Positions 1 through 20,000 of a stretch of 20,000 nt of DNA are shown here, in pieces. Source of the DNA: Chiloscyllium plagiosum. Its lineage: Eukaryota. Numbering within the stretch: position 1 is the stretch's first letter; the number at the start of each line of letters is the position of its first letter. The stretch lies in assembly GCF_004010195.1 (NCBI RefSeq), contig NC_057749.1, positions 16,622,534-16,642,533 of the forward strand, given 5' to 3'. Position numbers and translations under genes: made by a program. The notes beneath the pieces were generated by a model. The model saw nothing but the letters and a program-made list of their open reading frames with translations. It had not been told where the DNA came from and ran no database searches.

Positions 1-1586
1 AAATTAAACTGCACTTATTTCAACGCAAGAGGCCTAACAGGGAATGTAGATGAACTCAGGGCAAAGTTAGGAACATGGGACTGGGATTTCATAACAATTC
101 CAGAAATGTGGCTCAGGACTGGCAGCTTAATGTTCCAGGATACAAATGCTACAGGAAGGATAGAAAGGGGGGGGCAAGAGAGGAGGGGGAGTGGCATTTT
201 TGATAAGGGATAGCATTACAGCTGTACTTAGGGAGGATATTCCTGGAAATACATCCAGGGAAGTTATTTGGGTGGAACTGAGAAATAAAAAAAGGATGAT
301 CACCTTATTGGGATTTTATTATAGACCTCCAAATAGTCAGAGTGAAATTGAGAAACAAGCTTGTAAGGAGATCTCAGCTATCTGTAAGAATAATAGAGTG
401 GTTATGGTAGGGGATTAAAACTTTCCAAACATTGACTGGGACTGCCATAGTGTTAAGGATTTGATGGAGAGGAATTTGTTAAGTGTGTACAAGAAATTCT
501 TTTGATTCAGTATGTGGATGTACAAAATTTGACCTACTCTTGGAAAATAAGGCATGGCAAGTGATTCAGGTGTCAGTGGGGGAGCACTTTGGGGCCAGCA
601 ACCAGAATTCTATTAGTTTTAAAATAGTGATGGAGAAGGATAGACCAGATCTAAATGTTGAAGTTCTAAATTAGAGGAAGGCTAATTTTGATGGTGTTAG
701 CCAACATTGGGGGCAAATGTCCACAGGTAAAGGGACAGCTAGAAAATGAGAAGCCTTCAAAAATGAGATAGAGAGTGCAGAGACAGTATATTCCTGTTAA
801 GGTGAAAGGCTGGTAAATGGAGGGAATGCTGGATGACTAGAGAAATTGAGGGTTTCGTTCAGAAAAAGGAGGAAGCATATGTCGGGTATAACAGGATAGA
901 TCAAGTGAATCCTTAGAAGAGTATGAAGGCAGTAGGAGTATACTTAAGAAGGAAATCAGGAAGGCAAATAGGGGACATGAGTTAGCTTTGCCACAAGGGT
1001 TAAGGAGAATCAAAAGAGTTTTTTTATAAATACATTAAGGACAAAAGGGTAATTCAGGAGAGAATAGGGCCTCTCAAAGATCAGCAAGGCAGCCTTTATG
1101 TGGAGCCGCAGGAGATGGGGGAGATACTAAATGAGTATTTTGCATCAGTGTTTACTGTGGAGAAGACATGGAAGATACAGAATAGATGGTGACATCTTGA
1201 AAAATGTCCATATTACAGAGGAAGAAGTGTTGGATTTCTTGAAATGCATAAAGGTGGATAAATCCCCTGATCAGGTGTACACTAGAACTCTGTGGGAAGC
1301 TAGGAAAGTGATTGCTGGGTCCCTTGCTAAGATATTTGTATCATCGATAGTCACAGGTGAGGTGTCGGAAGACTGGAGGTTGGCTAACTTGGTCCCACTG
1401 TTTAAGAAAGATCGTAAGGACAAGCCAGGGAACTATACACCAGTGATCCTGACGTCAGTGGTGGGCAAGTTGTTGGAGGGAATCCTGAGGGACAGGATTT
1501 ACATGTATCTGGAAAGGCAAAGACGGATTAGGTATAGTCAACATAGCTATGTGTGTGGGAAATCATGTCTCATGAACTTGATTATG

Positions 1587-1903
1587 ATTAGATTAGATTC
1601 CCTGCAGTGTGGAAACAGGCCCTTCGGCCCGACCAGTTCACACCGACCCTCCGAAGAGTAACAAACCCAGACCCATTTCCCTCTGACTGATGCACCTAAC
1701 ACTATGGGCAATTTAGCATGGCCAATTCACCTGACCTGCACATCTTTGGACTGTGGGAGGAAACCGGAGCACCCAGAGGAAACCCACGCAGACACAGGGA
1801 GAATGTGCAAACTCCACACAGACGGTCACCCAAGGCTGGAATTGAACCTGGGACCCTAGTGCTGTGAGGCAGCAGTGCTAACCACTGAGCCACCATGCCA
1901 CCC
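1587..1903 (-). mobile_element. tRNA-derived V-SINE (HE1-like), full length, inserted in the CR1 RT
   Basis: Minus strand has A box tggctcagtgg (~1882-1892), B box ggttcaattcc (1838-1848), V-domain-like core and a CR1-like 3' tail ending in (aatct)n. The CR1 frame resumes on both sides (SCLMNLI / FFKEVTK). Confidence 0.9.
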
Positions 1904-2604
1904 ATGTTTTTTAAAGAAGTAACAAAGAGGATTGATGAGGGCAGAGTGGTGGACGTAATCCATATGGACTTCAGTAAGGGATTCAACAAGGTTCCCCATG
2001 GGAAACTGGTTAGCAAGGTTAGATCTCATGGAATACAGGGAGAACTAGTCATTTGGATACAGAACTGGCTCGAAGGTAGAAGACAGAGGGTGGTGGTGGA
2101 GGGTTGTTTTTCAGACTGGAGGCCTGTGACCAGTGGAGTGCCACAAGGATTGGTGCTGGGTCCACTACTTTTCATCATTTATATAAATGATTTGGAATGT
2201 GAACGTACGAGGTATAGTTACTAAGTTTGCAGGTGACACCAAAATTGGAGGTGTAGTGGACAGCGAAGAAGGTTACCTCAGATTACAAGGGGATCTTGAT
2301 CTGATGGTCCAATGGGCTGAGGAATGGCAGATGGAGTTTAATTTAGATAAATATGTGAATTACTACATTTTGGGAAAGCAAATCTTAGCAGGACTTATGC
2401 ACTTAATGGTAAGGTCCTTGGGAATGTTGCTGAACAAAGAGACCTTGAAATGCAGGTTCATAGCTCTTTGAAAGTAGAGTCACAGGTCGATAGGATAGTG
2501 AAGAAGATAGGTAAAAACAAGGACTGCAGATGCTGGAAACCAGATTCTAGACTAGAGTAGTGCTGGAAAAGCACAGCAGTTTAGGCAGCATCCGAGGAAA
2601 GGAA

Positions 2605-2640
2605 AATCGACGTTTCGGGCAAAACCCCTTCATCAGGAAT
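2605..2640 (-). ncRNA. Minimal hammerhead ribozyme motif in PLE terminus
   Basis: Minus strand reads attc-CTGATGA-a-gggg tttt gccc-GAAA-cgtc-gatt; one stem II mismatch. Confidence 0.7.
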
Positions 2641-3580
2641 AGAGGCAGAGTGCCTGCAGGGTGGAGAGATAAATGAGAGGAGGGTGGGGTGGGGAGAAAG
2701 TAGCATAGAGTACAATAAGTGAATGGGGTAGGGATGGAGGTGATAGGTCAGAGAGGAGGGTGGAGTGGATAGGTGGGAAGGAAGATTGACAGGTAGGACA
2801 AGTCATGGGGACAGTGCTGAGCTGGAAGTTTGGAACTGGGGTGAGGTGGGAGAAGGGGAAATGAGGAAACTGGAGAAGTCCACATTGATGCCCTGGGGTT
2901 GAAGTGTTCCGAGGCGGAAGATGAGGTGTCAGGTGGTGAGGGAGCGGCGGTGAAGGAGGCCCAGGACCTCCATGTCCTCAGCAGACTGGGAAGGGGAATT
3001 GAAATGTTGAGCCACAGGGCAGTATGGTCGATTGGTGTGGGTGTCCCAGAGATCTTCCCTAAAGCGCTCTGCTAGGAGACATCCAGTCTCCCCGATGTAG
3101 AGGAGACCGCATCGGGAGCAACGGATACAATAAATGATATTGGTGGATGTGCAGGTAAAACTTTGATGGATGTGGAAGGCTCCTTTGGGGCCTTGGATGG
3201 AGGTGAGGGAGGAGGTGTGGGTGCAGGTTTTGCAATTCCTTGCAGGGGAAGGTGCCAGGATGGGAGGGTGGGTTGTAGGGGGGGCGTGGACCTGACCAGG
3301 TAGTCATGGAGAGAATAGTCTTTGCAGAAGGTGGAAAGGGGTGGGGAGGGAAATATACCCTAGTGGTGGGGTCCGTTTGGAGGTGGTGGAAATGTCGTCG
3401 GATGATTTGGTTTATGATAAGGTTGGTAGGGTGAAAGGTGAGCACCAGGGGCTTTCTGTCCTTGTTACGTTTGGAGGGGTGGGGTCTGAGGGTGGAGTTT
3501 TGGGATGTGGACGAGATGCATTGGAGGGCATCTTTAACCTCCTCTCATTTACCTCTCCACCTTGCAGACACTCTGCCTCT

Positions 3581-3616
3581 ATTCCTGATGAAGGGCTTTT
3601 GCCCGAAATGTCGATT
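3581..3616 (+). ncRNA. Minimal hammerhead ribozyme motif in inverted pLTR copy
   Basis: attc-CTGATGA-a-gggc tttt gccc-GAAA-tgtc-gatt; the ACGT palindrome is mutated to ATGT. Confidence 0.65.
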
Positions 3617-4879
3617 TTCCTGCTCCTCGGCTGCTGTGCTTTTCCAGCACACTCTAATCTAGTGAAAAGGTGTTTGGTATGTTTTCCTTTATTGGTCAGA
3701 GTATTGAGTATAGGAGTTGGGAGGTCATATTGCAGATGTACAGGATGTTGATTAGGCCACTTTGGAATATTGCATGCAATTCTGGTCTCCTTCCAATCGG
3801 AAGGATGTTGTAAAACTTGAAAGTGTTCAGAAAAGATTTACAAGGATGTTGCCAGGATTGGAGGATTTGAGCTATGGGGAGAGGTTGAATAGGCTAGGGC
3901 TGTTTTCCCTGGAGCATCAGAGGCTGAGAAAAGACCTTATAAAGGTTTATAAAATCAGGAGGGGCATGGGTGGAATAAACAGACAAGGTCTTTTCCCTGG
4001 GGTGGAAAAGTCCAGAACTAGAGGGCATAGGTTTAGGGCGAGAGGGGTAAGATATAAAAAAAACCTAAGGGGCAACGTTTTCATGCAGAGGGTGGTGCAT
4101 GTATGGAATGAGCTGCCAGAGGAATTTGTGGAGGCTGGTACAATTGCAACATTTAAAAGGCATCTGGATGGGTATATGAATAGGAAGGGTTTGGAGGGAT
4201 ATGGGCCGGGTGCTGAAAGCGGGACTAGATTATGTTGAGATATCTGGTCAGTATGGACGAGTTGGACCGAAGGGTCTGTTTCTATGCTATGCATCTCTAT
4301 GACTCTATGACCCTAAATGACTTTAGTACAGGAAACAGGCTGTGAGCAAAAGCAGACCAACCAGTGTTAATTGCGAACATTTTCAAGTGCTAATACTGTG
4401 AGTTAGTTTGCGAGTCAAGATTGCTGTGTGGGAAATCAACGGGAGCTTTGCATCAATGCACTGATGTAGCTCTGCACTTTCACTGCCCAGATTAGTGGTG
4501 GAAGGGTAAGAGAGAAGTATGGTTGTGAATATGTTTGTTGCAACTGGGGACACAATGTTGCTCCACACTTAAAGAAAGGGACAGAAGTGTATTGCAAGTA
4601 ACAAAATGGAAATGTGACTGGAGATAGCTCTTGGATGGGGCGGGGCTGGGTACAATGTGAGGATACTATTCTGTGTCTAATCTGAGATGACAGTAAATAC
4701 TTGGCATTGACTGAAGACATCAAGGTCAGGGAAACCCACAAGGTTAACATCAAGTTCATCCGTCATCCCATGGACAAAACAGACTGGACCTCAGCCATTT
4801 TTAAAATTCAGTTGGGGGTCAATTGAAGCAGTGATAAAAGTTATTCATACAAGTGGCTGTTCAGCCATAAACCATCCAA

Positions 4880-5040
4880 ACATGCAGTCAAGGGAGGGTG
4901 GAGAAGCGATCTTTGAAGTTTTAGAGACAGACAATGAGGTGAAGAGGTTTAAAGAAGTGAATTTCAGACAATTGTGCTTTCTGGTTTCAAGCTCTGTCAT
5001 TGGTGAAATGAGAGGAAAAGGCCAGAGGACATAGAGCAGA
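4880..5040 (-). mobile_element. Old L2-like LINE 3' fragment
   Basis: Minus strand gaaattcacttctttaaacctcttcacctc...ttcaaagatcgc resembles the degenerate WNSLP.PLRL...FK C-terminus of L2 ORF2. Confidence 0.35.
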
Positions 5041-5064
5041 AGCAACTGAGCTAGGCTGTTGTGT

Positions 5065-5703
5065 TGTTATGGATCAGGCCAGACTCACTCAAAACATTTC
5101 AACAAAGTAGCCAGGATCTTAACTTTGATGGTTGTTTTAAGCAGGTAAGCAGTGGATATTCCTGAAGAGATCCAGCTGGTCAAACCATTTAGTTTTAAGT
5201 AAAACTGAATTTATTTACAAGATTATTGAATGAAACACAAACAAAAGAGAACAGAATACCGAATAACAGCCTATCCAAAAACTCAACAGATCATCCCAAC
5301 TTAATGCTGTTCCCAATACTTGCAACAATCCCCATAAACACCCCTTGGCACAAAAGGTAAAATCAAACCCAGGGCCTTACAGGAGAGATGTCAGAAAGAG
5401 AGAGGACCAACATGGCCCTGCTTCTTCGGGTCCAACAGCTTCAAAGCTAAAAGAGAAAAGCTAAAGCAACCCAAACCAAACCAGACCAGAGAAAAGCAAA
5501 GCTGGGAGAACAGTCCACTCCCCTTTCATTGTACAAGTGTTTCTTTTTAAACTGGAAAGCCTTTTGCCTGAGGAAATATCTGTTAGCTATAATCAAACTG
5601 GTCCTAAAACCCTTCAACTTAGACTTTTTGAAGTCTGTGTCTTTTACGACCTCTGGAAGAAACCAAGGAAATATAACCTTGTTAAAGGAGCAGCATCTTC
5701 ACA
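5065..5703 (-). mobile_element. Probable solo LTR
   Basis: Begins TGTTA, ends TCACA (TG...CA), about 640 bp and non-coding. Flanks gtgt/gggt match 3 of 4. AATAAA on the minus strand at ~5210-5215. Confidence 0.5.
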
Positions 5704-6004
5704 GGGTTAAGAGCCACCAAATGCTTAGCTTCATCAATCATGTCCCAGGCTCAGACTCAGAATTGGTCAATGATACTGCTCATTTGTTATTCCCTTCTCA
5801 GACCAGTCTATGGTTAAACCAAGCAAACCTTAAAAATTGCACCTAGCCTTCCACCGTGGGTATTATGTAGGTTCAAGGATGCAGTGCAGGCACTGAGTGG
5901 GAGGAGGGAGTCTTGACAGCTTTGTATTGTTAGCCATAACCAGTTCCATTAACCTGAAAACCAAATCCATAAATATGAGAGATTTTCACCAATCCTCCAT
6001 GCAG

Positions 6005-6250
6005 CTAATTTTGGAGAAAAATGTTAATCACAGATTATAAGAATGTGGAACGCATTGCCACAACAACTGGTTGAGATAAATAGCTGAGTTGCTTTTAAGA
6101 AAAGTCTAGATTTTATGAAAGGGAACCACGGAATGGCAAGATATGATGATAGGATTAGAAGCAGAGTGGTGGAAAAGGTTCGTACCGAGCAAATCTACAA
6201 TTTGTTACACCAAAAGCCCTGTTTCTCTGTTGTAAAATCTATGTAGTTCT
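6005..6250 (+). mobile_element. Old CR1 3' end fragment
   Basis: agaatgtggaacgcattgcca (MWNALP), ttttaagaaaagtctagat (FKKSLD), and tail ccctgtttctctgttgtaaaatctatg. Confidence 0.6.
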
Positions 6251-7179
6251 CTGTGTGAAACTAGGCTGGTGGAATTGAATCTAACATTCACTATAAGAAG
6301 TTTACAGGCCATTTCTGTCTGTGATTTCTCTCATCCACATTTCCAGAGATTGAACGAGAAAGCTTTGCAGCAACTAGTCCTTGCTTTCTGCAGGATAACT
6401 GAGCTAGGAAACTCTCCTACTTATACCACTTGCCATCAGGTGTGCGAGTAGGACTTATACGCTGATACATCAACTTGTTTGGCCACTTTATGAATGTATC
6501 TTCAACAAATAAGTCCTAGCATAGGACTCAACCAAGAGATTCTGGTCCAGATGTAGGGGCACTACCACTGCACCAACAAATCTCCCACAAAGGTCACTTC
6601 TAATGCCAAATAAAACTGTTTCAAGTTTCAGAGGACTGCATAAGAATTTCCAGCTTCCCACTGACATCATGTACCAGGGAAATTCAATGAGCTTCTCATT
6701 CCCTAGTTCCCATATCTTGGTAAAACAGTTTAATATTCAGCATCCCAGGTAAAAGGTCAAGACTGATAGAAGAGCATGTGAAAGTTTCAAGGAAGTGTGA
6801 AGACATGTCAAATCAGAATCTAGCTGGTCAGAAAAACACAATCTTGTTGAGGAGGGAAGACTATAGAAGGTGATTTTTAAAGCTGGGATAAGTGTGCGAG
6901 TATGGGATCCCAGCAGATAATAAAGGGAAGTTGTTTTTTAAAGCAGTGATTTGGGGACACAGCAAGGAGAGATTCCAAGTCAAGTGTTGTCAAAATTCTT
7001 CAGCTGGATAATCATATTGTGAGAACAGTGATGTTGATAATGCTCAAATTCCAAACTGGACAGATGTATTGCTGAGTCTACACAACCTGTCTGAGTCCAG
7101 CAGACATTGAGTGTTTCCTTCTGGATTATACAACAAATCAATTTCCTAAATTATTGTCTTTCATTATGACACAACAGAT

Positions 7180-7230
7180 AATCTTCTGACTCAGATTCAA
7201 GGGTGTTACCAACTGAGCTAAGCTCACATG
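7180..7230 (-). mobile_element. Fragment of a tRNA-derived (Deu-type) SINE head
   Basis: ttctgactcaga...ccaactgagctaagctcac resembles the head of the element ending at ~11484 (tcaactggtcccaagctcac). Confidence 0.35.
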
Positions 7231-7599
7231 TCAGTATAATTTAATAAACTGATCAGATTTAGAAATATACTTCATCGAGGCACAATTTCCTCATTCCTGT
7301 TGAACATGCCAACATTAATAGGACTGGTATGAGCTAACAATTCTCTAGAACAACAGAAAGTTGGCAAGGCTCCCTCCTCCCACACAATGCGTGCTCTGCA
7401 CACTTGAAACTATATGATGTCCACTTCAGCTGGCTTTTTGCACCCAGGGCAATCTTCAAACACAGGAAACCTTCTTGTCTGTCCATCAAAATTATAGCCA
7501 AGCCTTACTGGTAATAGAGCAGCTTTATTTAAATCTGAGAAACCTGACAGGAAAAGTCCACAGGATATGGCAAAAGGGAGACACAGGAGATAGTGTGTG

Positions 7600-8680
7600 A
7601 GATAAAACCAGAAAATATTGGAAGTCCTCAGCAGCTCATGAAACATTTGTTGTGGGAGAAACCAAGTTAGTGTTTCAAGTTGATGACTTTTCAAATGAAG
7701 TGGGGAAAATTAGAAATATACCAGTTTTAAACCATCTTAAAACTGGAATAGTGAAGGATTGAAAAAGAACAGAAAGGACAATTTATCATAGGGTGGAAGA
7801 TAGGAAAATCAGATGACAAGAGTTGCTAGCTTAAAGCCAAAATTACTATTCATCAGATGAGAAACAGAAGATGCGCATACTGGAGCCACCCAAAAGTGAA
7901 AGGAAGAGAAAAATGAGTAATGCTGAAACAAGCAGCATAAGGAAATAAAATGAGAGTAGAATACAATGTTGAATCTAGAAGGCTGTAAAATACTGAACTG
8001 AAAGTGAAGTGTTGTTCATTGGAACATTGTAGGATGCCAAGACAGAGAGTTCAGCATGAGAGCATGGTGGAAAGTTTAAAAAAATTCATCCATGGGCTGA
8101 GGGCATCACTAGCTAGGCTAACATTTATTGCCCATCCCAGAAAGCAGTTACAGGTCAACCACATTGCTGTGGATCTGGAGTCACATGTAGGCCAGACCAG
8201 GTAAGGATGGCAGTTTCCTTCCCTAAATGATATTTGTGAACCAGATGGGTTTTTCCAACAGTGGATTCATGGTCAGCATTAGACTCTTAATTCCAGATTT
8301 TTTCATTAAATTCAAATTTTACCATCTGCTGTGGCAGGATTCGAACCTGGGTCCACAGAATATTTCCTGGGTCTCTGTATTAACAGGCCATTGCCTCCCC
8401 CTCTCCCAAGACTGCGTACTTGGGATTATGTTTGCAAACCAAATAGAGGTGTTTCACAAAGTGAGCTCTCAATCTACATTTATCTCCTGAACGTATAACA
8501 AACTGTTATGAGCAGCAAATGTGGTTACAAATGCATGGAAACCATTGCATGGTGAGGAGAGGAAGTAAAAATGAAAATGCTGCATCTCTTGTTCTTGTTC
8601 TTGCGTGGCATGGGGTGAATGGGAAAGGGAGGTGTACAGGTAACTGATGAGTGAACTTGGAATGGTAAAAGGGCACATGG
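7600..8680 (-). mobile_element. Ancient degenerate Penelope-like element, interrupted by a SINE
   Basis: 7600-7700 resembles a PLE terminus with a decayed hammerhead (minus tttgaaaagtcatcaacttgaaacactaac). Minus ~8445-8520 gives frameshifted LLYV.E / KCRLRAHFVKHL, a GIY-YIG-like remnant. Confidence 0.55.
8076..8400 (-). mobile_element. tRNA-derived SINE
   Basis: Perfect B box ggttcgaatcc on the minus strand (8337-8347). Body ggagtcacatgtaggccagaccagg and tail catttattgcccat are shared with the copy at 10406-11370. Confidence 0.85.
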
Positions 8681-10464
8681 TATTTATATTCCTAATGCAG
8701 TTTTAAAATTTAGACAAAAAGATAAAGAGTCAAAAATTAAGTTTGCTGCTCCATGACTCTAACCCCAAAAATACCATTAGAACAGTGATAAGACTTGAGA
8801 GGAAACCAAAAGCCAGAAAGGTATACACCTTTGGAAGAATGCAATCCTGATGAATTTCCTTCCATTTTGTTGCTAGTCCATTCACCAAGATTTCAGCTCA
8901 ATTTTCAGCAGAAGTAACAAGAACTAAGCACAATTGCCAAAATATTGCAGTTAAGAGTTACATAAACTTTATTGCAGGTACATAGCTTGAGGGAATAGTA
9001 TTTTCCATTGCTATGCAACAGCTTGTGTGACTCAGGAGCAGTTAGAGAGAATCTACTACTGGATACGTTAAAATTTGAGAACTCCAAAATTTAGCAAAAA
9101 TAACTGTAGCAACATGCAACACAACAGTTCTCAAAAGAGGAAGTTAGGAGTTTTGAAAGTCACAGCTTTATTAGTGATGGCCTTAGCAGTTGTTACTCGC
9201 TGTTTTTAGGTCTCGATTTGTGCTGTAAAGGTAACCATTAACTGAGCTTTGCATTGCTTGTTTTTCATGGTATTTTAGCAAAACAAGAAAGGGCATGTTA
9301 TTATTAGGAGGCAAAGTGTGACTTACTCTATTTGACAAGACAATCAGGGTATCATTATTCTGTATCAAATCTTACTTTCATCATATGAAAGTGCTGCCTT
9401 GGATATCTAAAAGACATCACACCCCTTGGATTAGGTTCAGAAGGTACATGCAGAAAACCTCCTCAAACCACTGTATACTGATCAATGCCAGGCCCCAACG
9501 AAATACTTTAACAAGGTGAAGGACATAATTTTCCAAGCATTCAGGATGGTGAGAATTATCACTTGTTTCTGGTTACCAGCAGAAATGCCAGAATGCAGAA
9601 AGCACTTTTCATCAGGGTTTTGAAAGTTAAAGGTAGCAAATTTTTCCAAAGGTTTTGAAGGCTCCTGATGTGATAAATAGTAAAAGACTATTTGAACAGT
9701 CACAAAGATTCATCATACCTAAAAAGATATTAACTGGACAAAGAATGGAATTTGGGTCATCATGAAAATTAAATGAATGCTGCCCTTTGCAGTTGTATGT
9801 TAAAGTTCAGAACACTGAACTTTATACTGTGAATTATTAACAAAAGATTCTAATAGGAGATAAACACTTTAAAAGTTAACCTGTCATTTTTACATGGAAA
9901 TATAAACAAAATACTGGTGTTTTCTTTTAATTAATCAGGTCAGCAGGTCTCCAGCTGTCTGCCTTCAGAATGATACAAAATTAAAAGGGAGTGAGTTTGG
10001 ATTATTTCCTCTGAGACATATTCTTCAAGGGAAGAAAGAGACAGAACTCACACAACACCAATATTTATGTTGCTGTAGATAGAGAGAAAAATAATTTGTA
10101 TTTATATAGGAAAACAGATGTCTCAAAGCACTTTACAAAGCAATTTGTTTTTGAAGTGCAGTCATTTACGCGGAAAGATTTGCATTAAATTCCCAAATAC
10201 AGCATTGAGAAAATGGTAGTTAATCTGTTACTTTCCTGAAGCTGCCTTGACCATCACATTGGATACTGGCTAACAGGAACAAAAGGTAGTTCTAGAGACA
10301 CATGAAATAATGTGAAATGTCCACCTGAAGAAATGGTATTTCCCCATTTCTTTCCTAAACAGAAACACAGCACTTCCAACAATACAGTACTCCCACAGTG
10401 CTGCATCTTTATTTTATTTATTCACATGTGGGATGTGAGCGTCGCTAGCTAGGCCAGCATTTAT

Positions 10465-10674
10465 GGATCAGTGGTGCTGGAAGAGCACAGCAACTCAGGC
10501 AGCATCCGAGGAGCTTCGAAATCGACGTTTCGGGCAAAAGCCCTTCATCAGGAAGGGCTTTTGCCCGAAACGTCGATTTCGAAGCTCCTCGGATGCTGCC
10601 TCAGTTGCTGTGCTCTTCCAGCACCACTGATCCAGAATCTGGTTTCCAGCATCTGCAGTCATTGTTTTTACCTT
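10465..10674. mobile_element. 210-bp palindromic non-autonomous PLE derivative with hammerhead at its centre
   Basis: Arms 10465-10546 and 10552-10633 are 81/82 complementary with a 5-nt loop. Perfect 13-bp TSD ggccagcatttat (10452-10464, 10675-10687). Sequence matches the termini of the 2507 and 19283 elements. Confidence 0.92.
10520..10553 (-). ncRNA. Minimal hammerhead ribozyme motif (intact core)
   Basis: Minus strand tc-CTGATGA-a-gggc tttt gccc-GAAA-cgtc-gatt. Confidence 0.75.
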
Positions 10675-11058
10675 GGCCAGCATTTATTGCCCATTCCTAG
10701 TTGCCCTTAAAGTGGCGGTGGTGAGCTGCCTTCCTGAACCGCTGCAGTCCACCTGCTGTGGGTTGACCCACAATGCCCTTCCTGGTCTGTGAGATAGCTC
10801 TCCCAATTTTGGCACTAGACCACAGAGGTCACTAAGTGAGACTTTGCAGGGTCAACACGGCTGTCTTTTCTGATGCCAAGTTCGATGCCGGGTGATCACT
10901 CCAGTTTCATTTCTTTGAGACTTTGTAGCGATTGGTACAACTGAGTGGCTTGCCATGCCATCTAGAGGACAATTGAGAATCAACCAGATTGCCGTGGGTT
11001 TGGAGTCACATGTAGGCCAGACCAGGCAAAGACAGCAGATTTCCTTCCCTAAAGGACA

Positions 11059-11182
11059 TTGTTGCTGCTGTTGGACTGGGATGAACAACGTCAGAAGTCA
11101 CATGACACCAGGCTTTAGTCCAACAGGTTTATTTAAAATCATAAGCTTTCAAAGCACTGCTCCTTCGTCAGGTGATTTCTGA
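11059..11182 (-). mobile_element. 124-bp solo PLE terminus (second family) carrying a hammerhead motif at 11139-11175
   Basis: TSD cctaaaggaca (11048-11058, 11183-11193). Minus strand tcac-CTGACGA-a-ggagc agt gcttt-GAAA-gctt-atga, followed by aataaa. Confidence 0.8.
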
Positions 11183-11599
11183 CCTAAAGGACAAAAGTGA
11201 AGCAGAAGGATTTTTCTTATAGTCATCAGTGGATCTTTAATTCTAGATTTTTAAAAAAATTCAGTTAAATTCTACCATCTGCTGCAGTGAGATTCAAACC
11301 TGGGTCCCCAGAACTTTAGCAGAGTTTATGTCTGAATAGTCTAGCCATAATACCACTAGGCCATTACCCGTGACATCCCCACTAGAATGCCAGCCTGTAT
11401 TATATGCCTAAATCCTGGAGGTAAGCTTTAAACTCACAAGAGATTTTAATTCATATTAGTACTATCAACTGGTCCCAAGCTCACGTGGAAACAAATTCAA
11501 TATTTGCTACTTTGAACTGTGTCAACCAACAGATTTGTTATTTTTTTTTAAAAAAGGCAAAGGTAACATGGTCAAAAATGTCCAACAGCTTCTGAGAAA

Positions 11600-11950
11600 C
11601 TGTCCCAAACTTTTATCAAACTTTTAAAATGACAGTTGATGTTAGTGATTCAGGTAGGTGCGGTCTAATTGCAAAATGAAGAATCAGGAATAGAGAAGCT
11701 GTGAGGTACTTTTCTAAAAAAAAAGAAATTGAACCAATATCACAAATAGTAGTCAACAGCAGTAAAGTAAACTCTTAAGTTTATGTTTATCACGGCCACA
11801 AAGAAACATTAATATACACTGACTTTCATCCCTTGGCTTTTGTAGAAAAATTTAGAATTTGAAATGAGAAACTACTTTGATTGAGCTTATCAGTTGACCC
11901 ATATAAGAATTGTTCACATTGCTGGAAAGGACTATGTAATTGCAGACACA
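11600..11950 (+). mobile_element. Ty3/Gypsy LTR retrotransposon RNase H remnant (pseudogenised)
   Basis: Frameshifted FKMTVDVSDSG, GAV, LQNEESGIEK, YFSKK, TLIYTDFHPLAFVEKF, IVHIAGKDYVIAD correspond to Gypsy DAS.G.GAVL / YFSK / TDH.PL / G..NV.AD motifs. Confidence 0.8.
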
Positions 11951-12680
11951 CCAAGAACATGATGATGCTGGAATAGGTTGAAATTTTGTGAAGAAACAAG
12001 GAGTTCTACGAATCCTGCCTATAGAGTGAGTTGGGGTGACTGAATGCAATTGTGTTTTATTTACTGTATACACATTATGTTTACCTTATTAAACACATTT
12101 TAAAATGGTATTTCATCTCTTTAGCTTTGCAGACTTGCAAGGACAACATATATTTTATTTGCAATATAAATGGAGGTTTGGACTGCAGTGCTGTGGGGGA
12201 AAGAACCAGTTGCTTCTTTTATAACTCGAAACAAAAGTGGAACTGTGTGGTGTTCACTCATTGATTACATAAGAACATGTAACTTTTACTGACATTAGAT
12301 TTGATATTTCCATGAGACAAATTAGCCTTAGGTGCCTTTGGGTTTGGAATGGAAAAGTAACTGCAATGATAGCGTTTAAATTGTCTTTAAGTAACAGTTT
12401 GATACAGAACTGAGGAGACAGCATGTTTGGGCTTCAAATGTCTGCAAACAAGGCAGATTCCCCCCTCATGCACAGAATGGAAAATAAGTAACACTCAAGG
12501 ACTAAGGTCTAACTGACCAGCTACTGAATTGAGAATCATTGCAGTCGATAACAATGTGATAGAATTGTCAAAAAAACCAAACACAATGTTGAGAAAGTCA
12601 CTTAATTTACCTTGTGTTTTGGACACTTGATTCACAGACTTTTTTTCCCCTATATTTTCGACTTCACAATATTCCTGTAA

Positions 12681-12886
12681 AATTAGAATAGAATATAATA
12701 GAATCCCTACAGTGTGGAAACAGGCCATTTGGCCCAACAAATCCACACCGACCCTCCGAAGAGTAACCCATCCAGATCCATTCCCCCATCCTATTACTCT
12801 ACATTTACCCCTGACTAATGCACCTTACCTATACAGCCCTGAACACTATGGGCAATTTAGCACGGCCAATTCATCTAATCAGCATC
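12681..12886 (-). mobile_element. 5'-truncated HE1/V-SINE-like copy
   Basis: Near identical to 1595-1740 (cagtgtggaaacaggcc...caccgaccctccgaagagtaac...aacactatgggcaatttagca), with a (gaata)n tail. Confidence 0.88.
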
Positions 12887-13229
12887 GGTCTTGTCTATGC
12901 TATTTGTGAATGAATGTATCGATCTAAAGGATGTCCAGTTTAACTTTGCATGTTTGTAATTAATAATCTATTTTTGGTACATCAGATAATAGGCTTTTGT
13001 AACAAATTAGTTTTTTATTTTCAGTTCATTGATGAACCCTGGTGAGAGTTTCTTTCATCTTCAATAGTGGTCACAGTCAGGTATCAGCCACTGTAGAGAT
13101 TAATCAATTTCACATAGAGTTGTGGATTTCTAACTCAAACGCTGGAGTGTTTGATTTCTAATGCACTCTTCACATCAGGATCGTGGCAACAGTCACTGGT
13201 CAGAACCACAATCTATCTTTATATGTTAC

Positions 13230-13830
13230 CTTTAATATAGTAAAGCATCCCGAGGTTCTTCACAAAACCAAACCACATTAGGAAATACTAGAAGCATGTC
13301 ACAGCAGGTGATCCAAAGCGTGGTAAAATGGACTGGTTTGAAGGAACACATTAAAGGAGGAGAGAAGCAAAGGAATTTTGGAGCTTGAGGCCTCAGCAAC
13401 TGAAGGACTACTCTCCCAATGGCAGAAGAGTTAAAATAGAGGTCAGAATTCAAGATGTGCAGCTAATAGTATTGTAGAATCATTATAAAATGGTAGAATG
13501 TGGCCATGGAGGAAGTTGAAAATAAGGACAGAGGTAGAAACAGATTGTATTAGTAATAATGTTGATGTTAGTAAATTATCAAACTTATCTAGAAAAAGTG
13601 TAAATAGTTTGGTTCAGCCTCAGTTTCTAAGCAGGTGTCAATGGTTAGAAAATGGAGATCTTGGCAGGACTTACAAACAATGGACTCCTTATTCCCAATA
13701 TTTAATTAGAACAACGCAAGATGCCAGGTAATCAGTCCAATAACTTAGAGACATTAAGGGGTTGAGCGATGTTGTTGTAAGGTAGAGCTGAGGGGTGTCA
13801 ACATACAAGTGAAATCTGATGTTTTTTATG
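13230..13830 (-). mobile_element. Degenerate L2-clade LINE fragment (RT to 3' end)
   Basis: Minus IRFHLYVDTPQLYLTTTSLNP resembles L2 FH.YADDTQLY; 13230-13420 resembles an L2 3' end. Confidence 0.7.
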
Positions 13831-14330
13831 NNNNNNNNNNNNNNNNNNNNNNNNNNNNNNNNNNNNNNNNNNNNNNNNNNNNNNNNNNNNNNNNNNNNNN
13901 NNNNNNNNNNNNNNNNNNNNNNNNNNNNNNNNNNNNNNNNNNNNNNNNNNNNNNNNNNNNNNNNNNNNNNNNNNNNNNNNNNNNNNNNNNNNNNNNNNNN
14001 NNNNNNNNNNNNNNNNNNNNNNNNNNNNNNNNNNNNNNNNNNNNNNNNNNNNNNNNNNNNNNNNNNNNNNNNNNNNNNNNNNNNNNNNNNNNNNNNNNNN
14101 NNNNNNNNNNNNNNNNNNNNNNNNNNNNNNNNNNNNNNNNNNNNNNNNNNNNNNNNNNNNNNNNNNNNNNNNNNNNNNNNNNNNNNNNNNNNNNNNNNNN
14201 NNNNNNNNNNNNNNNNNNNNNNNNNNNNNNNNNNNNNNNNNNNNNNNNNNNNNNNNNNNNNNNNNNNNNNNNNNNNNNNNNNNNNNNNNNNNNNNNNNNN
14301 NNNNNNNNNNNNNNNNNNNNNNNNNNNNNN
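13831..14330. other. Assembly gap (500 N)
   Basis: Run of N. Confidence 1.
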
Positions 14331-15027
14331 CCACAAAGCATTCACAAAAACTAAAAGATGCTTGAAAGCTCAATATTGTAACCAACTATTTGGTTAGGTT
14401 TGCACAAAGCAACTAGTAGTAAATTTGCAAACCTTGGGGTTATTACAGAAGACATTGCTTGTTTAAGCCTTTCTGCAAGCTGAGGGAGTTTTGAGACTTA
14501 ATGGAGGGCAGTCTATTGGGCATATTGTGACACCATTTTTCTCTTTAAGTGGCAGGTTGCTGAAGTGCTGAAGAAATGTTGGCAAGCACTTTTCAGGGCG
14601 TAAGTGAGGAGGAGTGCCCCGAAATTCTGGGAACAAGGGGATGTCCAGTGAAGTGGCTGAGTTTTACATTGTTTCTGAGATTGACTCTGTGTCTTCTCAG
14701 TGGAGAAGCAGAATAGTGACATGATTAGGAACCTGGAAAGAACCCAGTATGTTTACAGCAAGTGACCACACAAAGCAATTACTAGCAGGTATAATCAGAA
14801 AAATGAGGGTTACCAACTTTGTGCAAAAGTCACGAAGAAATTGAATGATACTGTACAAGATAGGATGATATTTGGGATAATAGCTTGGGGTTTGGTGGTG
14901 GTGGTGGTAGTGGCAGGGGGATGGGAAAACCAGAGTGAAATGTATCTAAACTTCAAAGTTTGTGAGAAGATTTGTAGCTCGGGTGCTCGTTGCTGTGGTT
15001 CTGTTCGCCGAGCTGGAAATTTCTGTT

Positions 15028-15067
15028 GCAAACGTTTCGTCCCCTGTCTAGGTGACATCCTCAGTGC
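15028..15067 (-). ncRNA. Hammerhead ribozyme motif with extended stem II
   Basis: Minus strand gca-CTGAGGA-t-gtcacct agac aggggac-GAAA-cgtt-tgc; stem I is gca/tgc. Confidence 0.75.
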
Positions 15068-15260
15068 TTGGGAGCCTCCTGTGAAGCGCTTCTGTGGTGT
15101 TTCCTCCGGCATTTATAGTGGCCTGTCCCTGCCGCTTCCGGTTGTCAGTTTCAGCTGTCCGCTGTAGTGGCCGGTATATTGGGTCCAGGTCGATGTGTTT
15201 GTTGATGGAGTTTGTGGATGAGTGCCATGCTTCTAGGAATTCCCTGGCTGTTCTTTGTTT

Positions 15261-15534
15261 NNNNNNNNNNNNNNNNNNNNNNNNNNNNNNNNNNNNNNNN
15301 NNNNNNNNNNNNNNNNNNNNNNNNNNNNNNNNNNNNNNNNNNNNNNNNNNNNNNNNNNNNNNNNNNNNNNNNNNNNNNNNNNNNNNNNNNNNNNNNNNNN
15401 NNNNNNNNNNNNNNNNNNNNNNNNNNNNNNNNNNNNNNNNNNNNNNNNNNNNNNNNNNNNNNNNNNNNNNNNNNNNNNNNNNNNNNNNNNNNNNNNNNNN
15501 NNNNNNNNNNNNNNNNNNNNNNNNNNNNNNNNNN
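15261..15534. other. Assembly gap
   Basis: Run of N. Confidence 1.
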
Positions 15535-16621
15535 TGTTGTGGCCCTTTTGAATAGTGTCTTGATGCAACTTTGTTTGTGTGTGTTGGGGTGGTTGCTTTC
15601 ATAGTTCAGGACTTGGTCTGTGTGTGTAGCTTTCCTGTATACCTTTGTGGTGAATTCTCAGTTCGGTGTTCTCTGTATCATCACGTCTAGGAACGGGAGT
15701 TGGTTATCCTTTTCTTCTTCTCTCGTGAATTGGATTCCTGTTAGTATCTAAACTTGTTGATATGAAATTGGTGGGATATTGAAAAAAAGCTATAAATAGG
15801 TTGAGTTTAATACAGGAAGATGAGAGGTTCTACACTTTGGTAGGAAGATACAAAAAGCATATTATTTAAATGCACAGACTCCAGAAAGCACAGGACAGAG
15901 GGGTCTGGGTGTTCTTGCATATGAGACACAAAATTAGCATACAGGCACAGCAAGTAATTAAGAAAGCAATTGGAATTCTGGTCTTCATTGGTAGGGTTTG
16001 GAGTTTAAAAATAGGAGAGTCTTATTATAACTGTACAAAGTGTTAGTGAGGCCATACCTGGAGTATTGTGTACATTTCTGGTCCTAGTAGTTAAGGAAGG
16101 ACGTACTAGCAATGGACGCAGTTCAATAGGGATTCACTCAGGTGATTTCCTGGGATGAAAGGGCTGACTTATCAAGAACAGCTGAACAGGTTTGCCCTTT
16201 ATTCAGAGGTGTATTTATGAGAGCAGACCTTACTGAAACATATAAAATTCTGAGGCAGCCTGATAGGGTTGATGTTGTGAAGATGTTTCCACTAGTGGGG
16301 AGATCTTGAACTAAGGGACATAATTACAGTATAAAGAGATACTAATTTAAAACAGATGGAGGATTTCTTCTCCCAGAGGACATCGCATGCCAGTGATTCT
16401 CTGCCCAAGAGTTGTGCAGGCTAGATCACAAAGTATTGAAAGCGGAGGGAGATTTCTGAAACACCAGGAGTAGAGAGCTAAAAGGAGCTGGCACGAGAGA
16501 AGAGGCCTGGGGCAGATCAACTGTGATCATGTTAATGGAAAGGCAGGCTCAAGGGGCTGAATGGCCTACTGCTGGTATTTGTTACATTCTTGTATGACAT
16601 GTCTGTAAACAACTTTTACAG

Positions 16622-16992
16622 TAGAATGCCAAAATTAGCACTACCAAATGCTTTGAAGACTTTTACTGTAACAGTCAAGAAGATGAAGATGGATGTGTTG
16701 TATGAAGAATTTGTCATTGGAGAAAGAGTTATACCCTCAGCCAAGATGAAGGATTGGCAGATCAGTGAGGAGAAGTACCTGAAACTTTGTTCCAAACCCA
16801 AGGAAATAAAACACAAATATGAAGATCATTCTCATACAGGAGGTTTCTCCACGATGACCACTGCTTGGAGGAACGAGGGGTACAGACTGGAGGTGGTCAG
16901 TAGAACTCAACATATGCAATTTTTCAGAAGAACGCAAACACACATACCCCAGTTCTTGGAGGATAAATGTTTCCAAATATCACTGGGAATGG
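16622..16992 (+). CDS. Candidate internal host-gene exon, product unknown
   Basis: Stop-free ~123 codons with protein-like composition and no TE motif recognised. Acceptor cttttacAG at 16620-16621, donor G|GTGAGT at 16993 (alternative donor at 17072). Confidence 0.55.
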
Positions 16993-17088
16993 GTGAGTGT
17001 CAATTCGTATCAAACAATAGTCTCCCTGGGCTACTCCTTCTGCCGTCCCCCCTCCCCCCCCAAATGACTTGGTGAGTACATTGGCTTT

Positions 17089-17895
17089 AAACTTACAGAA
17101 ACAGATCCTTTGGTCCAATCATTCATACCAACCAGATATCCCAAATTAGTCCCATTTGCCAGCATTTGACCCATAATCCATCCAAACCCTTCCTATTCAT
17201 ATACCCATCCAGATGCCTTTTAAATATTGTAATTGCACCAGCCTCCACTATTTCCTCTGGCAACTCATTCCATACACACATCACCCTCTGCATGAAATAG
17301 TTGCCCCTTCAGTCCCATTTATTTCTTTCCCCTCCACCGTAAACCAATACCCTCTAGTTTTGGACTCTCCAATGCTCGGAAAAGGACCTTGGCTACTTAC
17401 CCTAACTATACCCCTCATGATTTTATAAACCACAAAAGGTCATCGTTCAACCTGCAACAGTCCAAGGAAAACGCCCCAGCCTATTCAGCCTCTCCCTCGA
17501 ACTCAAACTTTCCAGCCCTGGCAGCATCCTTGTAAGTATTGTCTGTACCCTTTCAAGTTAAGCAACATCTTTCCTATAGCAGGGAGACTAGAACTAAACG
17601 CAATATTCCAAAAGTGGTCTAACCAATGTCCTGTACAGCTGCAACATGACATCTCAACTCCTGTACTCAATGCTTTGACCAATAAAGGCAACCATACCAA
17701 ACACTTTTTTCACGACCCTGTCTACCTGCAACTTGACTTTCAATGCACCATGAACCTGCACCCTAGGTCTCCTTGTTCAGCAACACTCCCCGGGCCCTAC
17801 TATTAAGTGTACAAGTCCTGCCCTGATTTGCCTTGCCAAAATGCAGCATCTCACATTTATCCTTCTGCCACTCCTCAACTCATTTGCCCATCTAA
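17089..17895 (-). mobile_element. CR1 3' fragment, related to the 1-4310 family
   Basis: Reverse complement matches the 3' part of that element, e.g. aaacccttcctattcatatacccatccagatgcc, and encodes LQLYRTLVRPLLEYCVxF-like sequence. Confidence 0.9.
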
Positions 17896-18324
17896 TGGGA
17901 TTTTGTATGCCATTAGCACATGATATGAGCCTTTAAAATATCTGAGGAATTGTTATATTTGGTTATATCTTATTCACAATTCCCAAACAAATTTCAATGG
18001 ACAGCATAATGCCATTGCATACCCATCTATTGTTGTCCAAATAAATAATAAGTGGAGACTCTGTGCTTGTTCAGGTGAAAGCAAGAGATCCAATGACACA
18101 TTTCTAAATCAAGAGTAATATCCATCTCCACATTAAACATCAGTTCCTCAACCCAGATTAATTAGTGATCCAGCCCCATGAACAGGTGTGCATAACTAAC
18201 CAGCATGTTTACTTAGAGTGCTTGCACTTCAGAATTAACTCACTAGACAGGAAGTCCTTTAACTTTTATTACGGACTTGAAAGATGTTGTATTTGTCCCA
18301 GAGATCCCTGGGACATGCACTAAA

Positions 18325-18559
18325 CAACCCCACCGCCCTACCTTCATCTACCTATTGCATTCCCAGCTACCTTCCCCCAGTGCCACTCCCCTCCCATTTA
18401 TCTCTCAGCCCCCCTTGGGGACCCTCTCGTTCCTGATGAAAAGCTTATGCTCGAAACGTTGACTCTCCTGCTCCTTGGATGCTGCCTGACTGGCTGTGCT
18501 TTTCTAGCACCACGCTCTTTGACTCTGATCTCCAGCATCTGCAATCCTCACTTTCTCCA
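18325..18559 (+). mobile_element. PLE terminus (solo pLTR) with hammerhead motif at ~18430-18463
   Basis: Pyrimidine tract followed by ttc-CTGATGA-a-aagc ttat gctc-GAAA-cgtt-gac, then ctcctgctccttggatgctgcc...ctccagcatctgca, homologous to the other Neptune-type termini. Confidence 0.82.
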
Positions 18560-18819
18560 TTGAAGGAATGCTGGCTTGGGCAGAATTGCAACTGGTTGCC
18601 AAGAAACAAATTCAATAAAATTATTAAAGCTCTGAAAACAGAATACATTATTCAGCAACAGTGACACACAGAGGTGGGAGCAAACCATTACACACCTCCA
18701 CCCGAATGTTGTGTGTGAAAACCTCGTATTGGTCTTTCCAAGTTTATCTCATCACTTGAGTGCGTGGGAAGGATACTCGTTGCATTACTTTATTAAATGT
18801 GCCTGATATTTCATGGGGA

Positions 18820-19230
18820 CATGAGTAAACCATTCAGCTTAGAGAACCTGTTCACCATTCAATAGCATCGCGGCTGATCACTTCAACACCTTTCTGCCCC
18901 TACCCCACTAACCCCATATCCTTTTAAGTCATTGACAGGTCTCTAAATACCAATCTGATAATATTTAATGACTCAGTTTCCACAGTCCTTTGGGCACAGA
19001 ATTCTAAAGCTTCTGAGTAAAAGAATTTCTCCGCACCCTGGTCCAAAGCAGCTTCCTGTTTTTTCACTCCTAACTGAGACCACATCTCACCTGCATTTAC
19101 CCTGAGTACCCTTTGCAGGTTTCAATGAGACTACTTCTCATTTTTTTGGAACTTTAGAGAATACAGGCTCAGTTTTCCTAATTTCTCATCACATGACAGT
19201 CTAACCATCCCAGGGACATGTCTGGTGAAT
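18820..19230 (-). mobile_element. Old CR1 3' fragment
   Basis: Minus FTRHVPGMVRLSCDEKLGKLSLYSL resembles CR1 FTRMLPG..LSYEERL.RLGLFSL; tail-like sequence near 18825-18880. Confidence 0.7.
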
Positions 19231-19282
19231 GTTAACAGAAATTGCTGGAGGAACTCAGATCTGGACACATTTGCGGTGAAAA

Positions 19283-20000
19283 CAGATTCTGAATCAGTGG
19301 TGCTGGAAGAGCACAGCAATTCAGGCAGCATCCGAGGACAGGCAAAATCGACGTTTCGGGCAAAAGCCCTTCATCAGTAATAAAGGCAGAGAGCCTGAAG
19401 CGTGGAGAGATAAGCTAGAGGAGGGTGGGGGTGGGGAGAGAGTAGCATAGAGTACAATAGGTCAGTGGGGAAGGAGATGAAGGTGATAGGTCAGGGAGGA
19501 GAGGGTGGAGTGGATAGGTGGAAAAGGAGCTGGGCAGGTCGGACAAGTCCGGACAGGTCAGGGGATCGAGTTTCTGGAGGTTAGAAACTAGGATGAGGTG
19601 GGGGAAGGGGAAATGAGGAAACTGTTAAAATCCACATTGATGCCCTGGGGTTGAAGTGTTCCGAGGCAGAAGATGAGGCGTTCTTCCTCCAGGCATCTGG
19701 TGGTGAGGGAGCGGCGGTGAAGGAGGCCCAGGACCTCCATGTCCCCGGCAGAGTGGGAGGGGGAGTTGAAATGTTGAGCCACGGGGCGATTTGGTTGATT
19801 GGTGCGGGTGTCTCAGAGATGTTCCCTAAAGCGCTCTGCTAGGAGGCGCCCAGTCTCCCCAATGTAGAGGAGACCGCATCGGGAGCAACAGATACAATAG
19901 ATGATATTAGTGGATGTGCAGGTAAAACTTTGATGGATGTGGAAAGCTCCTTTAGGGCCTTGGATAGAGGTGAGGGAGGAGGTGTGGGCGCAGGATTTAC
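19283..20000 (-). mobile_element. Penelope-like element (Neptune-type), same family as 2507-3659, running off the window; hammerhead motif at 19346-19381
   Basis: Minus KSCAHT...FTCTSTNIIYCICCSRCGLLYIGETGRLLAERFREHL*...VAQHFNS...LGTLQPQGINVDF. Terminus atta-CTGATGA-a-gggc tttt gccc-GAAA-cgtc-gatt. Confidence 0.93.

Follow-up and report, generated by a model that had tools for sequence, protein, structure and literature searches.

Penelope-like elements (PLEs) of metazoans carry minimal hammerhead ribozymes within their pseudo-long terminal repeats (pLTRs), and motifs of this kind recur in a 20,000-nt stretch of the Chiloscyllium plagiosum genome (NC_057749.1, positions 16,622,534 to 16,642,533 of the forward strand), referred to here as the window. 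The minimal hammerheads of metazoan PLEs (PMC4209133) are of type I, lack helix III in the monomer, and have a palindrome at 15.2-16.2, an extra base between A9 and 10.1 and a G10.1-C11.1 pair; several families occur per genome, mostly as single copies in truncated elements, with close pairs on opposite strands. The window copies are alike in these respects, and differ in that family A has a helix I (2+1 bp) and a helix II (4 bp) shorter than those of the Schistosoma consensus. Monomers of the published minimal hammerheads were inactive and dimers weak (PMC4209133).

A second comparable system is the Poseidon element PAc of Anolis (PMC11167929), likewise a vertebrate endonuclease-positive PLE with a pLTR hammerhead and a tail. 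Its cleavage was measured and requires the PLE protein, is not needed for insertion in vitro, and is reported to leave no RNA-seq ends at the site, whereas the window copies are known from sequence alone. Judged from motifs, family B in the window resembles the PAc clade in lacking the zinc-finger linker. Non-LTR retrozymes (bioRxiv 10.64898/2026.07.22.740005) are also of type I, derive from PLE pLTRs and are reported from one cartilaginous fish genome; one of nine Xenopus dimers was cut. They are defined by head-to-tail tandem units, whereas the window contains none and no window copy has a same-strand homologue within 3.7 kb. The ultraconserved intronic hammerheads of amniotes, e.g., in RECK (PMC6155905), share type I topology and a position in or near genes; however, they are single, conserved across species and have canonical helices, in contrast to the window copies, which are members of decaying repeat families. 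At the level of the insertion, an inverted pLTR, a tail and a target-site duplication (TSD) make up the known PLE layout (PMC3846280, PMC8557442). All three are present in the insertions at 2507-3659 and 10465-10674, with TSDs of 10-13 bp and a tail of 35-40 nt at one end, the second being the shortest form of this unit, with its inversion point within the catalytic core.

Based on the analyses described below, we consider it probable (about 0.85) that the seven window motifs are minimal type I hammerheads of endonuclease-positive PLEs, which work, if at all, in tandem source transcripts, the dispersed copies being relics. In a source transcript with the arrangement pLTR-open reading frame (ORF)-pLTR, two motifs would pair via the 4-bp palindrome and cut weakly after H17, and the literature suggests that the element's own protein may be needed for cleavage. 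Selection would keep the motif in the source elements; each inserted copy, as the counts below suggest, would decay nearly neutrally, and hammerheads would remain in truncated, non-propagating insertions. The kind of hammerhead is already described in PMC4209133, and copy number is the only striking point of the present data, which otherwise confirm a described motif in one more vertebrate; the in vivo role of PLE hammerheads is treated as open in PMC8557442 and PMC11167929.

Hammerhead cores of three PLE families

An earlier note on this DNA listed seven hammerhead sites, and all seven proved to contain the exact core CTGANGA...GAAANNTH, in comparison to a mean of 0.33 and a maximum of 2 in 300 dinucleotide shuffles. 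Six cores have an ungapped stem II of at least 3 bp (shuffle mean 0.04, maximum 1), and the catalytic positions C3-A9, G12-A14, A15.1, U16.1 and H17 are exact in every copy. The probability that these are chance matches to a short consensus is negligible. Such a view could draw on an Rfam scan of the window and three other loci, which gave no hammerhead match up to E=10, and on the sampled DNA, where 8 of the 56 exact cores fall outside any family; it is refuted for the seven listed sites by the shuffles, by a 14-fold genome-wide excess over the reversed pattern and by the fixed position within the pLTR. Rfam matches to microRNA and RRE families at 10468-10630 were rejected, being under the gathering score and reflecting the perfect hairpin at that place.

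Compared by the sequence downstream of the cut site, the seven copies, named here by the position of C3, form three unrelated groups. Group A comprises 2636, 3585, 10551 and 19377 together with the sub-branch copy 18433 (pairwise scores 33-89), while groups B and C are represented by 15064 and 11171, respectively; scores between groups range from 12 to 16, with a shuffle maximum of 24. The "at least 3-4 lineages" of the earlier note were thus right in that there are several, but these scores give three groups, not four. In all three lineages the core lies within a pLTR tied to an ORF encoding reverse transcriptase (RT) and GIY-YIG domains, in agreement with the proposed PLE origin. For A and B the association is found within the window, and for C it comes via two other loci, L029 and L030. 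The family A link is given by tblastn (E=8e-34 and 2e-31), and that of family B by an RT thumb match (E=4e-8) and 89% identity to an RT-carrying copy in the flank. For family C, an RT ORF in L030 lies between two cores on the same strand spaced by 2.5 kb and has 106 homologues, mostly with RT and many also with GIY-YIG. The element at L030:274-2791(-) is a near full-length, frameshifted pLTR-ORF-pLTR member of family C and a useful family reference. Zinc-finger-like linker cysteines are present in family A (across a frameshift) and in the best family C homologues and absent in the family B flank copy; on this basis, A and C would be Neptune-like and B Poseidon-like.

The anatomy of a minimal type I hammerhead, as claimed for these sites, was found at the family level for the core and all three helices. 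Helix II contains G10.1-C11.1 and one extra base after A9. Helix I is 3 bp in 6/6 copies of family B, has pairs 2.1-2.3 in 5, 8 and 7 of 8 copies of family C, and is short (2+1 bp) in family A, where pairs 2.1, 2.2 and 2.4 occur in 27, 30 and 27 of 31 copies with a U.U at 2.3. Helix III is palindromic in 22/31 (A), 6/6 (B) and 8/8 (C) copies, reading ACGT or AGCT depending on the lineage; in six of the eight copies of family C the final base is A rather than T. Across the lineages, stem I is ATTC/GATT, GCA/TGC and CAC/GTG. The covarying stems of the earlier note are therefore borne out between lineages, where all three helices vary in a paired manner around a constant core. At the second stem II pair of family A, genome counts were 124,974 for G-C, 2,759 for A-C, 2,426 for G-T and 1,785 for A-T, the last being 33-fold above the 54 expected if the two positions were independent; the broken A-C form is commoner than A-T.

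Individual window copies depart from this consensus in different ways. The 2636 copy has a stem II of GGGG/GCCC with a single G.G mismatch, which corrects the gggc/gccc of the earlier note. The helix III palindrome is present in six of the seven copies and lost through CpG decay at 3585, which reads ATGT; moreover, the true palindrome spans 4 bp, as ACGT or AGCT; the AACGTT and AAGCTT given previously are 6-mers that take in A14 and H17. G10.1 is changed to A in the 18433 copy, giving A.C, and the 2.1-1.1 stem I pair adjoining the cut site is broken in the 19377 copy. The 11171 copy also has a broken stem I pair adjoining the cut site, together with a G.U in stem II and a helix III of AGCT. 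Altogether, 6/7 copies are damaged by a broken pair or lie within an inverted-repeat duplex. Only 15064 retains the core, both stems I and II and the palindrome and has no inverted partner nearby; its nearest same-strand relative is 11 kb off. An eighth, 5'-truncated copy at ~10552-10574(+) forms the opposite arm of a near-perfect fold-back. The decayed copy suspected at ~7665-7700 is a genuine old pLTR relic, with local scores of 41-42 against two old pLTR copies in the flank (shuffle maximum 28-29); its scores of 24, 18 and 19 against the window copies of A, B and C are not significant.

Folding, decay and copy number

The 2636, 3585 and 10551 copies are fully paired in the minimum free energy (MFE) structure of their insertions (ViennaRNA), and for 10551, which is intact in sequence, a hammerhead-compatible fold lies 41 kcal/mol above the MFE. 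The 2636 and 3585 copies are predicted to pair mutually in any transcript spanning both. In in-silico homodimers of all seven copies, the active fold was 8-29 kcal/mol above the cofold minimum, which is a hint only, as the model has no tertiary terms. Of the 33 intact motifs in the surrounding 220 kb, 22 lie no more than 3.5 kb from an inverted homologue. Inactivity is expected of most window copies, through loss of a key pair, capture in a duplex by the inverted partner, or lack of a same-strand partner nearby.

Core retention was counted for family B only, using one control set and 17,139 copies picked by their flanks. All 10 non-CpG core sites were kept in 15,237 copies (88.9%; 1.2% loss per site), and all 10 non-core sites in 14,179 (82.7%; 1.9% loss per site). 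The catalytic G12, which lies in a CpG, was kept in 15,965 copies (6.9% lost), in comparison to 15,762 (8.0% lost) for the G of a control CpG just beyond the motif, so that G12 decays at 85% of the control rate. Inserted copies of this family thus decay almost neutrally, at a rate of the same order as neutral sites. The earlier note had expected the core to be conserved over the flanks in family alignments, and within family B it is slightly better kept than the control sites. Conservation within a family is the wrong level for this test, because selection acts on the source elements and the signal is expected between lineages.

Several points weigh against the source-element reading or narrow it. 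The family B core is retained somewhat better than its controls, both over the 10 sites (88.9% vs 82.7%) and at G12 (losses of 6.9% vs 8.0%), and most family B copies keep an intact core. This small excess leaves room for some selection on the copies; it would equally result from minor source lineages or from the mutational context. The A-U pair in stem II of family A is one compensated lineage event, not 1,785 independent ones. The ViennaRNA energies leave out tertiary core contacts, and the clade names given above come from motifs alone.

Rather than for cleavage, the motif could be kept in the source elements as a structural or protein-binding signal, or as a mark of the 5' edge of the template, which we regard as very unlikely. 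Among 68 family A copies, similarity declines at the 5' boundary of stem I, ~4 nt before C3, and few copies start at the cut site as judged by eye; in addition, a single fold-back junction within the core is shared by 3,905 insertions, and both observations fit self-priming at the motif's 5' edge. The family A stem I of just 2+1 bp points the same way, as do the Anolis PAc core mutants, which insert normally in vitro, and the lack of RNA-seq ends at the PAc cut site (PMC11167929). Subfamily differences upstream, however, also reduce family A similarity, and three lineages with unrelated flanks have retained every catalytic base of the core together with the helix III palindrome, as cleavage would demand. 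Furthermore, PAc cleavage depends on C3 and G8, and the double mutant restores it (PMC11167929).

Genome-wide, the core pattern gave 382,821 matches in 3.56 Gb and the reversed control 26,546, an excess of ~1 per 10 kb; the pattern requires no stems and may count overlaps. When pairing of stem II was required as well, strict patterns gave 124,974 matches for family A and 18,482 for family C, and 17,139 family B copies were selected by flank anchors alone. About 4,000 hammerheads were reported for the coelacanth and 9,000 for Xenopus tropicalis (PMC4209133), and the comparison is loose because that descriptor was stricter and the counts are not like for like. The "very many such catalytic RNAs" of the earlier note therefore hold as to number, but the word catalytic does not fit the near-neutral decay of G12 and the damaged or buried state of 6/7 window copies. 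Literature searches on hammerheads in shark PLEs found no paper counting them, although the supplements of PMC4209133 may list cartilaginous fish; for the whale shark, a preprint (10.1101/443036) describes a PLE expansion with 30% in introns.

Host genes around the window

The neighboring genes are encoded on the minus strand. In window-relative terms, FURIN exons are found at +81.6 to +41.3 kb and FES coding exons at -21.1 to -55.7 kb (Pfam, PDB). A third gene, which we take to be MAN2A2 from its Pfam mannosidase domains and synteny, runs leftwards on the minus strand from a CpG island at -63 kb. A distance of 21 kb separates the window from the FURIN stop on one side and, likewise, from the FES start-codon exon on the other, these two landmarks being ~62 kb apart. 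A splice acceptor just upstream of the FES start-codon exon implies a non-coding first exon somewhere to its right; the window is thus either intergenic or within an intron of the FES 5'-untranslated region (UTR), and in the latter case the five minus-strand copies would be sense. Pfam searches of 148 long ORFs from the surrounding 220 kb and of 149/498 shorter ORFs (56-84 aa) between FURIN and FES gave no convincing cellular domain in or near the window. Two candidate host features were rejected. A CpG-rich patch 3 kb left of the window, considered as the FES promoter, overlaps an ORF with a weak zf-RVT match. An exon candidate at ~16674-16992(+) lies in a 179-codon frame (16536-17075(+)) of unique sequence with acceptor- and donor-like ends, for which there was no Pfam match, no homologue in the longer-protein set and no atlas match of at least 0.9.

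It has been suggested that sense copies in a host intron could cut pre-mRNA. For the window this is not supported: it lies between FURIN and FES and may be intergenic, 6/7 copies are damaged or buried, and none has a same-strand partner closer than 3.7 kb. Taken more broadly, dispersed sense copies might measurably cut host pre-mRNA, whether in cis across kilobases, in trans or assisted by protein, and alter the splicing or output of genes such as FES, FURIN and MAN2A2. The density of ~1 motif per 10 kb would allow it, intact sense cores are present between identified exons of FURIN (3), FES (1) and MAN2A2 (3), and a location of the window in the FES 5'-UTR intron would make 5/7 of its copies sense. 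In a MAN2A2 intron (locus L011), a direct pair of family A pLTRs lies in sense orientation at window-relative -73770 and -74066 (-), 296 bp apart and 98.8% identical, with A9 changed to G in the upstream copy; among local sites, this pair is the strongest candidate for cleaving a host transcript as a dimer. Xenopus retrozymes are reported as under-represented in introns (bioRxiv 10.64898/2026.07.22.740005), and the small excess of core retention in family B is also in line with such harm. Nevertheless, intact cores between the exons of the three genes number 7 sense vs 7 antisense, in a small sample (two further antisense intact cores lie past the last identified exon), G12 is lost at close to the neutral CpG rate, and published activity is weak even for dimers, 8/9 Xenopus dimers remaining uncut in the same preprint. 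We therefore consider pre-mRNA cutting by dispersed copies very unlikely. In 2% of one polyA single-cell run, read without a positive control, reads were absent from 13/30 bins and almost absent from unique sequence, and ends did not pile up; this result weighs little because of the lacking control. Reads on the motifs were mostly 90-95% alike and derived from other copies.

A wider version, which we hold to be very unlikely, is that nascent-RNA cleavage acts as a genome-wide load or control layer, with the inverted pLTR as a built-in off switch that allows build-up in introns. At about one hammerhead core per 10 kb, several sense copies are expected in nearly every long pre-mRNA of this animal, and such cleavage would follow if the element's protein, or the pairing of distant copies, switched on even a small share of them. 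The more than 150,000 strict-pattern copies, of which ~7% are G12-dead as judged from family B, offer a matched test of intact vs dead copies for harm to host transcripts.

Insertions and other features of the window

The features of the window are given in Table 1. The insertion at 2507-3659 has a pLTR and tail at 2507-2640 and an inverted pLTR at ~3538-3659, with 84-nt arms that are 94% complementary, and is flanked by the TSD TAGTGAAGAAG (2496-2506) / TAGTGAAAAG (3660-3669). It matches an RT+GIY-YIG protein at E=8e-34 (tblastn), whereas Pfam GIY-YIG alone reaches E=0.036. The joints 2503>3667 are present in reads and contigs of other copies of the long interspersed element (LINE) around it, which shows that the PLE insertion interrupts a LINE; Pfam reveals RT and endonuclease in this LINE, which we presume to be of CR1 type.

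Table 1. Hammerhead cores and the insertions that carry them (window positions; core rows run from C3 to H17)
Feature	Position	Strand	Remarks
Core C3..H17	2636-2609	-	Family A; predicted cut after 2609; 3' pLTR of 2507-3659 insertion
Core C3..H17	3585-3612	+	Family A; inverted pLTR of 2507-3659 insertion
Core C3..H17	10551-10524	-	Family A; arm of fold-back 10465-10674
Core C3..H17	11171-11143	-	Family C; solo pLTR 11059-11182
Core C3..H17	15064-15031	-	Family B; PLE 3' fragment 14940-15735
Core C3..H17	18433-18460	+	Family A, sub-branch A3; solo pLTR 18345-18548
Core C3..H17	19377-19350	-	Family A; PLE 3' end 19278-20000
PLE insertion, 5'-truncated	2507..3659	-	Thumb/linker and GIY-YIG fragment; inside presumed CR1-type LINE
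Decayed pLTR relic	7600..7700	-	Old; no intact core
Fold-back mini-insertion	10465..10674	.	86-nt arms, 98% complementary
Family C solo pLTR, 124 bp	11059..11182	-	11-bp TSD CCTAAAGGACA (11048-11058 / 11183-11193)
Family B PLE 3' fragment	14940..15735	-	RT thumb, assembly gap, endonuclease end, pLTR
Sub-branch A3 solo pLTR	18345..18548	+	Core 18433-18460
Family A PLE 3' end	19278..20000	-	GIY-YIG fragment; extends past window

The fold-back at 10465-10674 has a 5-nt loop inside the catalytic core, a tail solely on the plus arm and a 13-bp TSD, GGCCAGCATTTAT (10452-10464 / 10675-10687); its junction is identical at the 3,905 genomic places mentioned above (control 0). The 19377 copy has an inverted pLTR at window-relative 22159(+), 97.5% identical and past an assembly gap, and its tail (19278-19295) seems shortened by an internal deletion in comparison to the tails at 2507-2550 and 10638-10674. 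Assembly gaps occur at 13831-14330 and 15261-15534 in the window and at L019:1-2030; the last two are inside PLE insertions, and inverted partners or ORF parts may therefore be hidden in them.

The broken LINE covers window positions 1-2506 and 3660-4310(+) and is split by the PLE insertion and by an insert at ~1586-1905 resembling a short interspersed element; a second broken copy of the same type is found at ~17100-17870(-). A decayed fragment at ~11620-11965(+) resembles, as judged by eye, the RNase H region of Ty3/Gypsy elements. In family A pLTRs, a pyrimidine tract and CAG resembling a 3' splice acceptor precede the core by ~17-20 nt, at ~2655-2700(-), 19395-19440(-) and 18385-18410(+), and sense copies might be cryptic acceptors.

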